Shown here piece after piece: positions 613-53,081 of a stretch of DNA of 64,000 bases; position 1 is the first letter of the stretch, and each line of letters opens with the position of its first letter. Origin of the DNA: a virus. The DNA is taken from positions 13,320 through 77,319 of IMG/VR virus record IMGVR_UViG_3300028802_000008; one strand, given 5' to 3'. The notes under the pieces were generated by a model that ran no database searches, was not told the origin of the DNA, and saw nothing but the letters and a program-made list of their open reading frames with translations. The translations under genes were made by a program, and so were the position numbers.

Positions 613-1446
613 ATGAGTACCCCCGAAGAGTTCCAGAAGTATGTGTTGGATCGTGGCCGAAGCCACGCCACGGCCATGAACTACGCGTCCGACCTCCGCA
701 AGTTCCAAGGGTGGGTTTCCCAGGAAGGGGGTGGGGGGTCAAACTCATTTTCGGATGACGTTGAGGCGTTTATCAATGAGCTTCGGGGCAACCCTGAAGT
801 TTCGGTGGCGTCGATCCTCCGCTACATGTCATCGTTGCGAAGCTATTGGCAGTACGCGTCGCGCACCGATCCGACGATCACGCAACCGTTCGTGGACTAC
901 AAGGGACCGCGCACACACAAGCTGTCGTCGCACCCACTGCCCGGAATGATGGCTGACGTGGATGCGATGATCCGGTCGACCTACCGGCCGCACCACAAGA
1001 TTCTGATCGCTCTGTGCGGGTACGCGGGCTGTCGCGTGACCGAAGCCCGCAGTATCACGCCCCGATCCTTGTTCCAGGATCACCAGGGGAACTGGTGGCT
1101 GGGGATCCACGGCAAAGGCGGCACCTATCGGGAAGTTCCCGTCATGGACAAGCTGTTCGACCTGCTGGACGACGCGCCACCGACCGATCCCGATGAGCCT
1201 TATGTCAGGATCAACGATCGAGCGGCAAGAGCGGCCATCACGAACATTGGAGTGCGAGCACGAATCTCACGTCCGGTCGCCAGCCACGACCTCCGTCACA
1301 CGTTCGGCTCCTGGGTCTACGGACAGACGAAGGATCTCCGCGTCACTCAGGAACTTCTGGGGCACGCGGACTCCCGAACCACTCAGGGCTACACACACAT
1401 CGACCAGGAAAGGAAGCGAGCGGCAATCATGGGGGCGTTGACGTGA
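613..1446 (+). CDS. tyrosine recombinase/integrase (XerC/D-like)
   Basis: Catalytic motifs GCRVTEA, HGKGG, HDLRH, LLGH, TTQGY; ATG at 613 after AGGA (the track start at 508 is probably too long). Confidence 0.93.
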   Translation: MSTPEEFQKYVLDRGRSHATAMNYASDLRKFQGWVSQEGGGGSNSFSDDVEAFINELRGNPEVSVASILRYMSSLRSYWQYASRTDPTITQPFVDYKGPRTHKLSSHPLPGMMADVDAMIRSTYRPHHKILIALCGYAGCRVTEARSITPRSLFQDHQGNWWLGIHGKGGTYREVPVMDKLFDLLDDAPPTDPDEPYVRINDRAARAAITNIGVRARISRPVASHDLRHTFGSWVYGQTKDLRVTQELLGHADSRTTQGYTHIDQERKRAAIMGALT

Positions 1447-1655
1447 CCCCCGAGATGCTGTTGCTTCAGAAGCACTTCCCATTCCGCAAGAACGGTCACT
1501 TCCGACTGCCGTTCACCTACAAGGGTGATCAAGTAGCGAAAACTTTCATTCAGGCGCACCTGTGCAACACTTGCGCTGCAATCGTCCCATCCACTGGGCT
1601 GGTCAAACATGCCAAATACCACGGGGGAGCCATCCCCCAGAAAGAAGGAAGATGA
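1443..1655 (+). CDS. hypothetical protein (CxxC...H)
   Basis: GTGA overlap with recombinase stop. Confidence 0.55.
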   Translation: MTPEMLLLQKHFPFRKNGHFRLPFTYKGDQVAKTFIQAHLCNTCAAIVPSTGLVKHAKYHGGAIPQKEGR

Positions 1656-2225
1656 ATGAGGAAACGTGCGGTTCGGACCGCGTTACGAAACGTCCTATTG
1701 ATCGGAGTAGTAGGTATGGCTGCTGGATGCACGCCAGAAGAAATGAATGCCTGGCTCGCCTGGCACGATGCAGATCCCGAATCCGCTATCGCCTGGATCG
1801 AGCGACCCGAGGTTGCCGAAGACCTCACTCTCGACGCCAACCAGGATGGGGAGTTAGTCCAAGCTGAGAGGCTGGCCCCGCCACCACCACCAGTTCCGAC
1901 CGGTCTGAACGGACTTCCGTTTGCGTCCGGTGGCCTGAGTGACTGCGCCGAAATGATGTTCTACGCCAACCAAGTTGGTCTCCCCGGTCGCTTTGAGGGC
2001 ATCGGCTGGAGAGAATCCAACTGTCGAAATGAAGATGGAGTTCACACGTCGTGCTGCTGGGGGTATTGGCAGCTTCACCGGATGCACTTGCCGAAGCCCC
2101 AGTGTGACGCCTGGTCGGCATCGGACATCAACAGTGATGATCCCCTTGAAAAACAACGCCAAGCTTGTGTCGCCAAGGCACTTTATGATGCGGCGGGATT
2201 GAGTCCTTGGAGCGCAACAACATGA
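1656..2225 (+). CDS. lipoprotein with lysozyme-like/SLT transglycosylase domain
   Basis: Signal peptide ending AAG-C, Pro-rich linker, IGWRESNC (catalytic Glu), GYWQL, C-terminal A.ALY..AG.SPW. Confidence 0.75.
   Translation: MRKRAVRTALRNVLLIGVVGMAAGCTPEEMNAWLAWHDADPESAIAWIERPEVAEDLTLDANQDGELVQAERLAPPPPPVPTGLNGLPFASGGLSDCAEMMFYANQVGLPGRFEGIGWRESNCRNEDGVHTSCCWGYWQLHRMHLPKPQCDAWSASDINSDDPLEKQRQACVAKALYDAAGLSPWSATT
2167..2225 (+). repeat. copy 1 of 59-bp imperfect direct repeat (3' end of SLT gene)
   Basis: 45/59 identical to 2601-2659; encodes VAKALYDAAGLSPWSATT*. Confidence 0.95.
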
Positions 2226-2659
2226 CACCTTGCCGTGAATACCAGGGCACCATCAGCAGCGCGGGGTATGGGGTTCGACATGGTGAAGCCGCCAAAAGAT
2301 TCCAAACGGCCTACGTCCATCGACAGATCATGATCATGGCTGGTCACAACATCGAAGGGAAGGAGGTCATGCACATCTGTGACAATCCTCGTTGCTTCCG
2401 GTACGACCATCTCCGGGTGGGAACTCACGCTGAGAACATGGCTGATATGAAAGCGAAGGGGAGATACAAGGACAGGTCTCAAGGGAAGTTGACTCCCATC
2501 CCTCACGGGACCAACGCTGGGTATGCCCGTCATCAACATCGAGGCGAGATACCTTGTGATCAATGCAAAAAGGCGCGTCAGGAGTACGACCGTGAACGTC
2601 GTGTCGCAAAAGCACTTTATGATGCGGCGGGGATGTCGCCCTGGAGTGCGACCTCATAG
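2222..2659 (+). CDS. HNH endonuclease (free-standing homing type)
   Basis: GYG, VHR, HICDNPRC...HLRVGTHAENMAD; C-terminal HGT...CDQC; ATGA-coupled start. Confidence 0.9.
   Translation: MTPCREYQGTISSAGYGVRHGEAAKRFQTAYVHRQIMIMAGHNIEGKEVMHICDNPRCFRYDHLRVGTHAENMADMKAKGRYKDRSQGKLTPIPHGTNAGYARHQHRGEIPCDQCKKARQEYDRERRVAKALYDAAGMSPWSATS
2601..2659 (+). repeat. copy 2 of 59-bp direct repeat (now the HNH C-terminus)
   Basis: Encodes VAKALYDAAGMSPWSATS*. Confidence 0.95.
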
Positions 2660-2673
2660 AACAGGAGGCAATC

Positions 2674-3303
2674 ATGACCGCCAAGGTCTCAGCCAAGATT
2701 TGGGTCTGCAAATACGGATGTCCTTACGTCTACAGATCGACCATTCCGATCTCGGCGAACGCTCACTTCTGCCCGAAACGCAAGGGGGAACATGTGGAGT
2801 CGATTCCGCAGAAAGAAGTTCCCGAAATTGCTTGTGTTTCGGACGATGACCCTGTACCTTCACTAACACCACAAGCACCAACGTCCAAGGAGGACACAGA
2901 TATGGCAACAACCCGAGCCGAACCCAAGGAATCGGCCACGAAGCCCAAGCTCAAGGCAGTGCCCAAGGAGGCAACTGTCGAGAAGAAGGGTCGTCGTTCG
3001 ATGGGTGGTCGCGGTTGGCTCGCTACGAAGGTCGAAGCGTACCTTCGTACACGCCCGACCGAGACCGTCTCGGTCGGCGAGATCGTGAAGTCGATCAAGA
3101 ACGTCGAAGGCGAGCATCCGTCAACGGGAGCCGTCGCCGCAGTCATCCTCCGATGGGGTGAGGCGGGATACATCAAGGTCAAGAATGAGCGTCCGCTCTC
3201 GTTCAATGGGTACACGGCCAAGTGGAAGGAATCCAGCTTGGATGCGTTCCTGGAGTTTGAGAAGACGAGGCGCGCCAAGGCCAAGGCGGCTGCGAAGGCT
3301 TGA
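2674..3303 (+). CDS. basic, putative DNA-binding protein; likely alternative start at 2902
   Basis: Lys/Arg-rich with a winged-helix-like segment; strong AAGGAGG before ATG 2902. Confidence 0.7.
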   Translation: MTAKVSAKIWVCKYGCPYVYRSTIPISANAHFCPKRKGEHVESIPQKEVPEIACVSDDDPVPSLTPQAPTSKEDTDMATTRAEPKESATKPKLKAVPKEATVEKKGRRSMGGRGWLATKVEAYLRTRPTETVSVGEIVKSIKNVEGEHPSTGAVAAVILRWGEAGYIKVKNERPLSFNGYTAKWKESSLDAFLEFEKTRRAKAKAAAKA

Positions 3304-3557
3304 GTCAAGCCAGGCCGTCCGTAACGCTCCCGGCCCACACTTTCTTCTACACGACGGATCAGGTCGCACTGATTCTGAACGTGGAAGAGGCGTGGGTCCG
3401 GGAGCGTTGCTACCTCGTAGGCAGAATGCCCGACACCCATGTTCGGAGCAAGTTGCAAGTCGTCAATCTCGCGGAGCCGAATGAACGGCCTCGATGGAGG
3501 ATCAGTGATCGCGAACTCACTCGCTGGCTGATCCGGAAAGGGTACCAAGTCTCATGA
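3300..3557 (+). CDS. HTH (excisionase/MerR-like) DNA-binding protein
   Basis: FYTTDQVALILNVEEAWVR...WRIS pattern. Confidence 0.7.
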   Translation: MSQARPSVTLPAHTFFYTTDQVALILNVEEAWVRERCYLVGRMPDTHVRSKLQVVNLAEPNERPRWRISDRELTRWLIRKGYQVS

Positions 3558-13301: not shown

Positions 13302-13601
13302 GTGAGGAGGAGAACCATGAAGAGTAACCAAGGGATCGTCTACATCACAAGGAACGGAAGGGCTCTGACCGGTGCGGAAATTGAAGTGCTCGTGGCACAA
13401 TCCGAAGTCGCAGAATTTGAAATGGCCGATCGCTTCCCACCGGGTCGCACGGAGCCAGATGCCGATTCCCGCATGGCGGCTCGCGCCATCAACCAGCAGT
13501 ACCAAGCCCTCATTCTGGAGGGGATGGATGATGATGTGGCCGTCCGAATCATCGGAATGATGCTCGCCAACGCCGCTGCCCTGTATGAGCAGGGGGAATG
13601 A
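13302..13601 (+). CDS. hypothetical protein
   Basis: Strong GAGGAG RBS. Confidence 0.65.
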   Translation: MRRRTMKSNQGIVYITRNGRALTGAEIEVLVAQSEVAEFEMADRFPPGRTEPDADSRMAARAINQQYQALILEGMDDDVAVRIIGMMLANAAALYEQGE

Positions 13602-50924: not shown

Positions 50925-51161
50925 TCACTGAGGTTTGGTGATCTGCATCGGTTGACCGAGTTTGATCTTCCAAACTCGTTTGCATTCGCGACACACAATC
51001 TCGACCCGTCCACCGATGGCTCGCATGTCCAAGAGGCTCCTTGCGCCTTTCATATGCCTTACCCACACAAACGGAACGCCGTCCTCGATTCCCGCCTTGG
51101 CAAGCAACGGCGTTCGGGAACATTCGCAACGAATCTCCTGAGGCGCGTCGAAGTCAGCCAT
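50925..51161 (-). CDS. Com-like zinc-ribbon protein
   Basis: EIRC.C...LLAK...VEIVCREC. Confidence 0.6.
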   Translation of the reverse strand: MADFDAPQEIRCECSRTPLLAKAGIEDGVPFVWVRHMKGARSLLDMRAIGGRVEIVCRECKRVWKIKLGQPMQITKPQ

Positions 51162-51654
51162 TCAGCTTGCGCTTTGGAGACTTATTGTTGGCTTGCTGAA
51201 TTGGTGTTGCCCACCGACAATTTGAAGGCTCGTAGTTGCCGTCATTGTCGATTCGATCCAAGCTTGTCCCCTCTGGCCGTTCACCCATGTCCGCCAGGAA
51301 TGTAGCGAAGTCGCTCCATGCTGGACAGACCGAGATTCCTCGCCCACCGTACCGGGCATACTGAGTCATCTTGGGGTTATTGCACCGCTGACGCATCGAG
51401 TCCCAACTGTTGTAAGTAGGGGTTTGACCACCAGCCGTGTGTCCATGCTTTGTCAACTTGGCCAGCGTCTCGTCAGAATGCTTCATGCCTTTGCGGGTTG
51501 CACTCATCTTCGCTCTGGTCTCTTCGGGCCGCGATCTGCCCTGAAGGGAAGCACGAATCTTCGCCTTGGTCTCCTCGGAGCACGGTTTGCGTACCCTGGC
51601 CTTATGAGTTGCACTCATCTTCGCTTTGGTCTCGTCTGAGTGCTTGTAACTCAT
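51154..51654 (-). CDS. HNH endonuclease with NUMOD3 repeats
   Basis: Four (H/C/R)(S/P)(D/E)ET.AK repeats; W.SM.QRC, YGGRGI.VC, DRIDNDGNYEP.NCRWAT. Confidence 0.9.
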   Translation of the reverse strand: MSYKHSDETKAKMSATHKARVRKPCSEETKAKIRASLQGRSRPEETRAKMSATRKGMKHSDETLAKLTKHGHTAGGQTPTYNSWDSMRQRCNNPKMTQYARYGGRGISVCPAWSDFATFLADMGERPEGTSLDRIDNDGNYEPSNCRWATPIQQANNKSPKRKLNG

Positions 51655-53081
51655 CCGTTCAGCTTTCCGCCAGAGCCAGGGCGAGTCACTCCTGCGGGAG
51701 TGTTCACGACCCGTTCTGGACGGTCGCGTTGCCGAAGATCAGGGGCGTTGCCCACCGGAGCATTGGGATCACCCGGAACCGGTTTGTTCTGAACCTGTCG
51801 CACTTCCTTCAACGTCATCCCGAGAGCCATCCCGAGTTGATCGATGTCAGGCATCATCTTGCCGCCCGAGATCAGTCCGGTGGCGATGGCACGAATCGTT
51901 TCGACGTTGTCCTTGCCGAGAGGTCGAATCTTCCACTCCACCCGCGGAGCGTTCGGAGAGAAGTTGTAATCCTTGATCCGCTGGAGGATGTAGGGGTCGA
52001 TGTATTCCTTGATGTCCATCGCCAAAGCGTTCAGCGACCACAGCCAAGTCTGCGTGTGCTGGACGCCGAGATTCAGCGACCCGTGCTCCCCCGCCCGCAT
52101 CAACAGCATCGGCGTGAAGATCGAAAGACTGATCTCCTCGTCCAATCGAGCGAGGTACCGCTCAAAGTCAGCACCCCGCATGTTGGACTCAAGATAACTG
52201 ATGTCGTAGGTGTATTCGCTTCCAACCGACGCCGAAGGGTCACGATCAGACGGCAACGTGACGGAACCACCGGAACGCAAACGCTCCAAGGATTCCTCGA
52301 TGACCTGCTTGCCGGTCTTCTCGATGTCGACACCGGACGCGTCCTTGTACTGGAACTCTTCCTGAAAGGGAGCACGCCCGATCGGTGTGGGCTCACCGAA
52401 CCGCTCAAAGTACCGATTGGAGAACAGGTGCATCAGGAGTGAGAAGTACCACGGAGCGAAAGCAGCCTCCAGAAGCTTCCGTCCGTAGTAGTTCCCGTGC
52501 TCACGCAGAAGCGGATACCACAGGGTGTGCTCGGGTGGCACCGGGTATCCGAGACCGATCTTGTCGATGCCGTCGTAAACCTTGACCTTCGGCGGAACGG
52601 TGTTCGCCCCGGTCACGTCCTGCGGTCGCGGGCGGTAGCTACTGGGGACTTCCTTCCAGTGGACCGCCGCCTGACTCGGATGGATGTCCTTCACCTTGTC
52701 AATGAAGACGTTCTGTCCGTTGTTGGCGTTGTCCCACTCCAGCACCATCGGCGAGAAGCCGGCCCAGTAAGCGGTTGAGAGTCCGCGGATCAACTCGGTC
52801 CAGATCAGACGGAGGTTCTCCTCCACGACATCAGCGATCTTCTGATCTTCGCACTCGACGTACCAGTCGCACTGATGCAGCATGAACGACATCAGACAAA
52901 GCGAAGCATTCACCTGTGGATGTGTCCGCATCTCGGAAAAATCAGCCAGCGTCAACTTGCTCGTGTCGAACATGATCGCCGGAAGCCCCATATACGACTG
53001 GAACGGTCGTCCCGAACCCTGCTCAAACGTCGCACCAAGTGCAGGAGGATCAGCTTTCCTGAAGTAAAACGGTTCGCTCAT
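51651..53081 (-). CDS. portal protein (Mu gp29/DUF935-like)
   Basis: AYWAGFS..LEW, GNYYG..L, ERFGEP. Confidence 0.85.
   Translation of the reverse strand: MSEPFYFRKADPPALGATFEQGSGRPFQSYMGLPAIMFDTSKLTLADFSEMRTHPQVNASLCLMSFMLHQCDWYVECEDQKIADVVEENLRLIWTELIRGLSTAYWAGFSPMVLEWDNANNGQNVFIDKVKDIHPSQAAVHWKEVPSSYRPRPQDVTGANTVPPKVKVYDGIDKIGLGYPVPPEHTLWYPLLREHGNYYGRKLLEAAFAPWYFSLLMHLFSNRYFERFGEPTPIGRAPFQEEFQYKDASGVDIEKTGKQVIEESLERLRSGGSVTLPSDRDPSASVGSEYTYDISYLESNMRGADFERYLARLDEEISLSIFTPMLLMRAGEHGSLNLGVQHTQTWLWSLNALAMDIKEYIDPYILQRIKDYNFSPNAPRVEWKIRPLGKDNVETIRAIATGLISGGKMMPDIDQLGMALGMTLKEVRQVQNKPVPGDPNAPVGNAPDLRQRDRPERVVNTPAGVTRPGSGGKLNG

Follow-up and report, generated by a model that had tools for sequence, protein, structure and literature searches.

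How do two neighbouring genes, one for a secreted protein and the other for an HNH nuclease, come to end in nearly the same 18 codons? The question arises in a soil phage known from a metagenome-assembled virus record of 77 kb (IMGVR_UViG_3300028802_000008), of which we analysed a stretch of 64,000 nucleotides (positions 13,320 to 77,319 of the record), called the window below. Between positions 613 and 4168 the window carries co-directional, tightly packed genes, which encode a tyrosine integrase, a 70-aa protein, a 189-aa secreted protein, an HNH protein, a 209-aa protein and more; a promoter and terminator scan gave nothing above shuffled sequences. The gene for the 189-aa protein (1656–2225; all features of this locus are on the plus strand), which we call the SLT-like (lysozyme-fold-like) gene, is an open reading frame that ends in VAKALYDAAGLSPWSATT and a stop codon. 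The next frame, a gene of 145 codons for an HNH_3 (His-Me-finger) endonuclease, runs from the ATG at 2222 to 2659 and ends in VAKALYDAAGMSPWSATS and a stop. It is followed by a spacer (2660–2673) with a ribosome binding site, AGGAGG (2663–2668), that serves the gene for the 209-aa protein (2674–3303), which has no known family. The two gene ends, tail copy 1 (2167–2225) and tail copy 2 (2601–2659), form the top direct repeat of the region. They are 59 nt long and have 14 mismatches, 12 in the 18 sense codons and two in the stop codons (TGA vs TAG); the encoded tails differ only by L/M and T/S (2 of 18 residues), and one serine codon is AGT in one copy and TCG in the other. The repeat alignment confirms what an earlier note, made from the sequence alone, had reported. 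The note's ATGA overlap at 2222–2225 is also real: the TGA that ends the SLT-like gene lies within the ATG of the HNH gene plus the base that opens its conserved second codon (Thr), and since the relatives of the HNH protein begin MTPCRE the ATG at 2222 is its true start.

The first step is to ask to which of the two proteins the tail belongs. The 189-aa protein has 250 metagenome homologues, and all of the 120 that were listed end in ...KQRQAC-AAK-LYD--G-SPW---. By origin, then, the tail belongs to the SLT-like family, whose native C-terminus it forms. Residues L176, G181, S183 and W185, all inside the tail, are invariant in the family, and a profile of the family tails also matches copy 2 (30.1 bits, E = 2.6e-7). 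In the structure model of the SLT-like protein the tail (residues 172–189) makes up the second half of a helix, 163–180, and a short helix after it; the pLDDT exceeds 90 as far as residue 180 and is about 70 from there on. The junction C171|V172 falls in the middle of the well-modelled helix, and so a gene truncated there would, according to the model, lose part of the protein's core.

"SLT" is a working label only, as far as sequence and model go. The protein matches no Pfam family at E ≤ 0.01 and no SLT or lysozyme profile, the family profile finds no match among PDB sequences at E ≤ 1, and Foldseek with the model gives no clear match. The fold matches that do exist are weak (Z 3–4.3) and comprise Bombyx lysozyme, Slt, the phi6 lysin, MltE, Slt70, phiKZ gp144, RpfB and EtgA; the catalytic region of the model is poor. 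An E120-S121 pair is invariant in the family, and some homologues carry peptidoglycan-binding (PG_binding) domains. Among phage records there is one distant match, in MW202795, where an HNH gene lies nearby but does not adjoin it. Two other metagenome loci of the family, L097 and L098, have an HNH_3-like gene immediately upstream of the SLT-like gene but in the opposite orientation (about 1942–2340 of L097), an arrangement that differs from that of the window.

The HNH protein, on the other hand, appears to have no tail of this kind by descent. It is recognised by Pfam HNH_3 (45 bits, cut-off 24.8, E = 8e-12) and zf-His_Me_endon (29.9 bits, cut-off 27, E = 7e-7); the conserved catalytic and metal-binding residues H51, C53, D54, C58, H63, N72 and D75, invariant in 43 relatives, are all present, and the structure model has a pLDDT of 92. 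By these three measures the nuclease looks intact. Foldseek with the model puts I-PpoI (prob 0.92) and I-HmuI (prob 0.87) at the top, although these matches are weak (E = 0.1–0.3 over 46–66 columns). The nuclease domain occupies residues 1–87 and is followed, up to R127, by a Cys-containing helical module that is putatively DNA-binding, and then by the 18-residue SLT tail, which in the model merely extends the last helix. The closest relatives share the nuclease domain only, and their DNA-binding module differs; relatives that have an equal C-terminal module stop 0–6 residues past R127, and among the best 150 listed of 51,821 significant matches (in 1.8 billion representatives) none extends into the tail. 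The tail is thus foreign to the HNH family. The module itself (residues 88–127, encoded by 2483–2602) has the pattern H-G-T-x-x-G-Y ... C-x-x-C followed by a helix and belongs to no Pfam family. It also occurs, repeated 4–6 times in tandem, in larger proteins whose C-terminal part is a classical HNH domain. It is a repeat motif of actinobacterial-type nucleases that has not been catalogued.

What did the locus look like without the nuclease? Among 76 metagenome loci of the SLT-like family, one (L051, 3,015 bp) is both syntenic with the window and free of the HNH gene. Its gene order is integrase (85% protein identity), 70-aa gene (79%), SLT-like gene, ribosome binding site and 209-aa gene (84%), and the last of these starts 12 nt past the SLT stop. 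The sequence between that stop and the ATG start, CAGGAGGCAATC, is identical to what follows copy 2 in the window. Relative to L051 the window therefore carries an insertion of 434 bp. This empty site supports the earlier proposal that the HNH gene was inserted inside the 3' end of the SLT-like gene, which one of the tails keeps whole, and the identical spacer supports the proposal that the other tail became the HNH C-terminus and retained the downstream stop, ribosome binding site and start. As the note had claimed, neither an intron nor an intein is involved: an Rfam scan of 1300–3500 found no intron, the host gene ends with a stop codon, and the HNH gene has its own conserved start. Two other differences between the window and L051 may be mentioned here. 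L051 has about 700 bp of extra small genes (1108–1810) between the integrase and 70-aa genes that are absent from the window, another indel. The SLT-like protein of the window begins (1656–1730) with a probable lipoprotein signal, ...GMAAGC, whereas that of L051 (2026–2090) starts with an ordinary signal peptide, and the N-terminal halves of the two proteins are unrelated. They share the C-terminal, putatively catalytic domain alone, so the SLT-like gene is mosaic at its 5' end as well.

Among some 79 loci that have the family tail, the window is the only one in which there is a second tail or an adjoining HNH gene, and the event is thus recent and lineage-specific. A record assembled from a metagenome raises the suspicion that strain variants of the gene end were misjoined during assembly, the more so as the junction between the HNH gene and copy 2 was found only in the probable source run. 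Against this, a single contig from the source run covers the stretch from end to end with uniform depth, and an independent root-metagenome run from another study (X3) contains 2093–2486, including the junction between copy 1 and the HNH gene, at 100% identity, which shows that this junction is real. Furthermore, repeats that are 76% identical do not confuse assemblers, and all of the reading frames and overlaps are intact. We consider an artefact of assembly very improbable.

A soil run from another study (X2) holds a close relative of the window's phage, with 94% identity over 1400–2089 and 99.7% over 2669–3303, the latter stretch including the whole 209-aa gene. Between them, at the positions of 2090–2668, it has unrelated DNA; its upstream gene ends in ...RKGQS and a stop, and this stop overlaps the start of the 209-aa gene in another ATGA. 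The loose end of this allele matches nothing among the fetched loci or the viral contigs. The HNH site is thus polymorphic for presence and absence, with L051 lacking the nuclease and X2 having a third arrangement at the same spot, which makes the locus a hot spot of recombination.

The differences between the two tails speak to where the tails came from. A detail absent from the earlier note is that they are clustered: the first 29 nt contain just two of them and the last 30 nt the other 12, every codon there that can change having done so. The copies have an identical core of 20 nt in common. Might the phage have duplicated its own tail when the insertion occurred, in the manner of a target-site duplication, the copies then diverging within one genome? 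The nearly identical 5' halves (2 of 29 nt) suit such an in-situ origin, as does the presence in both copies of rare Val and Ala codons that are absent from L051 and from nearly all other members of the family. Yet the 12 differences in the last 30 nt are nearly all synonymous, with the stop kept, and a tail that had become a mere appendage of a nuclease should have gained non-synonymous changes. The probability of no more than two residue changes, given 12 random substitutions, is 1.5e-4 if all of them fell on the appendage and 0.009 to 0.07 if half did, and the AGT/TCG serine switch requires three base changes. Duplication in place is accordingly an unlikely origin, though we rate it above misassembly. 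When each copy is compared with L051, the changes are confined to third positions of conserved residues and to residues that vary in the family, and a stop is kept in each; both copies must therefore have diverged as working gene ends. This pattern in the sequences indicates that two alleles were brought together by recombination between related phages. The similarity breaks off at about 2197/2198, and one may speculate that a crossover once took place, or a cut is made, at that point.

If two alleles met here, which of them is native to this phage? The comparison with L051, the only empty allele available, does not separate them: copy 1 departs from it at 14 of 57 positions and copy 2 at 13, and its synonymous codon identity is 0.64 to copy 1 and 0.69 to copy 2. 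L051 is itself a mosaic of the two, with codons 10, 12 and 13 matching copy 2 and codons 15–17 matching copy 1. The best hits among 125 loci do not separate the copies, nor does the family's codon usage tell a native from an imported tail. Among 23 distinct family tails, the core CTTTATGATGCGGCGGG is common only to copy 1, copy 2 and L051, so that these three come from one sub-lineage. The empty allele, which the earlier note had proposed to test for a match to copy 2, thus resembles the two copies about equally. The note had also called the upstream tail "recoded", a word that the comparison does not support, since the codons GGA, TTG, AGT and CCT of copy 1 are ordinary variants within the SLT-like family; copy 1 looks like, and probably is, an allele that arose naturally in a related phage and not a recoding by design. 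A candidate co-conversion tract at 2084–2166, where identity to L051 is low, was rejected because that region is a variable loop of the family.

The way in which the ends are joined to their neighbours is more telling. Copy 1 takes two bases of its stop, TG, from the start codon of the HNH gene and the remaining one from the beginning of the nuclease's conserved codon 2, and its last sense codon ends in the A of that same start codon. Copy 1 is thus tailored at its end to the nuclease gene. Copy 2, on the other hand, holds the ancestral position with respect to the ribosome binding site and the next gene. A stop made of the nuclease's own first two codons favours, by this reading of the sequences and by analogy with a second locus described next, copy 1 as the part that is borne by the element, in which case the SLT-like gene would be a hybrid whose last 18 codons, though functional, are imported.

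That second locus lies elsewhere in the window, at 50925–53081, where a Mu-type portal gene (51651–53081, minus strand) ends in KLNG and a stop, and a NUMOD3-HNH gene (51154–51654, minus strand), unrelated to the HNH_3 gene at the SLT-like gene, also ends in KLNG and a stop. The nuclease gene starts at an ATGA in the upstream copy of the portal end, and the start of the next gene (78 aa), ATGGCTGA, sits in the downstream copy; the duplication is 15 nt long. In this case an informative empty allele exists. L128 (3880–3990) has a portal gene with 86% DNA identity and no HNH gene, and its portal end matches the downstream copy at 17 of 17 positions and the upstream copy at 14 of 17, from which it follows that the portal gene's present end was imported. 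The upstream copy differs by two synonymous changes, which destroy the old start and create the new one, and on this comparison it is clearly the imported end. (The close portal relatives, L128–L130, are fragments without the SLT locus.) At the portal gene the displaced copy is thus the one closer to the HNH-free allele, which L051 does not show for the SLT-like gene (13 mismatches vs 14). For the earlier claim that the upstream tail was brought in by the element, the fitted start and stop and the portal comparison count in its favour, while L051 itself is nearly equally distant from both copies.

Putting these observations together, we think it probable that the 434 bp are a free-standing HNH homing cassette within the 3' end of the SLT-like gene, and that the mobile unit is copy 1 together with the HNH gene. 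Such a unit would consist of a replacement for the gene's last 18 codons, taken from another natural allele, joined to the nuclease gene. The native tail, copy 2, would have been displaced downstream, where it would be read as the last 18 residues of the nuclease and would end at the ancestral stop, 14 nt before the start of the next gene. In this way the host gene would be kept whole and the downstream gene would retain its translation signals, and the ATGA overlap would permit coupled, low-level translation of the nuclease. The nuclease would cut HNH-free alleles in or beside the tail; in a co-infection the break would be repaired from the occupied genome, so that copy 1 and the HNH gene are copied, with the gene body as the left homology and copy 2 plus the downstream gene as the right. 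Being strongly diverged in its 3' half, copy 1 would then resist being cut again.

Several features sit less comfortably with homing. The identical 20-nt core and the 5' halves that differ at only 2 of 29 nt fit poorly with selection against recombination between the repeats, and the near-identity of these halves could reflect either gene conversion or a partly in-situ origin. A target confined to the tail would still be present in copy 2. Moreover, with its ordinary codons, nothing in the sequence of copy 1 marks it as having been selected for immunity.

In a plainer account, two related phages, one of them with an HNH gene directly after its SLT gene, underwent illegitimate recombination close to the end of the SLT-like gene, which joined the 3' end of that HNH gene to the other phage's tail once only; the duplicated tail would be a scar and the nuclease a passenger. 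The tails do resemble two natural alleles, the locus has three arrangements among close relatives, and the joint, where the microhomology is only 2 nt (GT), cost the HNH gene the codons and the stop of its original end. Neither the searched loci nor the relatives contain another copy of the cassette. We looked for one widely: a DNA search of the region against 50,697 phage records gave no match; viral contigs scanned with the downstream gene and the integrase held no close relative; genome contigs, scanned for prophages with the downstream gene and the family alignment, gave nothing; an exact search of the viral contigs for the tail core found one chance match, in an unrelated Mu-like gene (L127); and no second genome with the SLT/HNH pair turned up among the SLT-like and HNH relatives and the loci searched. 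At the window's HNH gene the match between the flanks has z = 22.9 relative to shuffles, and 41 other HNH_3 loci reach at most 3.4; none of these 41 has a flank duplication, although one as short as the portal gene's 15 nt would escape this survey. What tells against a single accidental joint is the second, unrelated HNH gene of the same genome, which has the same layout with its start and stop fitted alike; this recurrence speaks for a process that is systematic and in which the nuclease has a part. In addition, recombination at exactly that point is most simply accounted for by a break that the nuclease made. A one-off joint thus seems to us a distinctly less likely explanation than homing, though a more credible one than duplication in place.

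Were the cassette to home in the proposed way, the interior of phage coding genes would be open to colonisation by homing endonucleases at essentially no cost, without a self-splicing intron or an intein. This would widen the set of sites that can be invaded and would supply a mechanism for abrupt switches of allele at the ends of phage genes. Whether the HNH_3 and NUMOD3-HNH genes here are independent examples of a general and hitherto undescribed class of intron-less and intein-less cassettes that invade the ends of coding genes in phages is a matter on which we are evenly divided. In such a class the substitute gene end would form the start of the nuclease gene, which would be read out through the displaced native end, so that neither flanking gene loses expression, and repeated replacement would drive mosaic, fast-evolving gene ends. 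For annotation, the arrangement explains a C-terminus that is common to two adjacent proteins, and it warns against calling the tail of the nuclease a domain. The pair of tails also offers a short candidate target and a candidate immune variant, with which the specificity of the HNH protein can be tested directly.

Full-text literature searches found no published phage case of a homing cassette that replaces a gene end, in line with the earlier note, which knew of no such system in actinophages. The layout itself, in which an HNH gene here stands between two copies of the target's 3' end, one inserted and functional and the other displaced, is already known with other nucleases from fungal mitochondria and yeasts. 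Among phage elements, the free-standing Seg and Mob nucleases of T4-type phages ("intronless homing") resemble the window's in that they include phage HNH proteins encoded outside introns and inteins, next to or in a conserved gene and sporadic in occurrence (PMC2988022). The UAAUGA overlap of mobE and nrdA has been read as translational coupling that limits expression of the nuclease (PMC2988022). The T4-type genes, however, lie between genes or split a gene into two polypeptides, as in Aeh1 nrdA, and the review of their homing includes neither duplication nor replacement of gene ends (the word "duplication" has 0 occurrences; PMC2988022); a further paper describes recombination boundaries at nuclease genes and does not mention gene-end replacement (PMC10448857). 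The nuclease domain itself is of the I-HmuI type (Pfam HNH_3), I-HmuI and I-PpoI being the best structural matches, weak as these are (E 0.1–0.3), but I-HmuI is encoded in an intron, and the putative DNA-binding module in the window is another, Cys-containing helical motif.

In the layout of the insertion, the closer parallels are eukaryotic. The WHO elements at FBA1 of Torulaspora and Lachancea yeasts are units of a resistance-conferring 3' gene end and an endonuclease gene, and their integration substitutes the gene's 3' end and displaces the old end downstream, where it serves as the right-hand homology (PMC7282813), much as we propose for copies 1 and 2. WHO proteins differ in being intein-derived LAGLIDADG proteins with a zinc finger that act in meiosis, and the fragments they displace are not translated and degenerate in clusters; cleavage of specific alleles has been shown for WHO, and in the window it is predicted (PMC7282813). 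The comparison with fungal mitochondria that the earlier note had drawn also holds. In the mORF gene hybrids of Allomyces macrogynus (atp6) and Glomus (atp6, atp9, cox2 and nad3) an endonuclease reading frame is found within the 3' portion of a conserved gene. That gene is made complete by a C-terminal segment which was inserted, and its native segment is displaced downstream; the homing scheme put forward for these hybrids is like the one given above (PMC3630166). There the elements are organellar and the nucleases LAGLIDADG or GIY-YIG proteins (PMC3630166), whereas the window has a phage, an HNH_3 protein and a duplication of 18 codons. The mORF is fused to its gene, and the nuclease of the window has its own start, overlapping the gene's stop; the displaced tail of the window is translated as the C-terminus of the nuclease, and the comparison with L051 (13 vs 14 mismatches) does not identify which copy is native. 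The divergence of the duplicated segments is nonetheless of the same order in the two systems, with DNA identities of 64–81% in the mORFs and 76% in the window, and in both the encoded proteins are nearly identical (PMC3630166).
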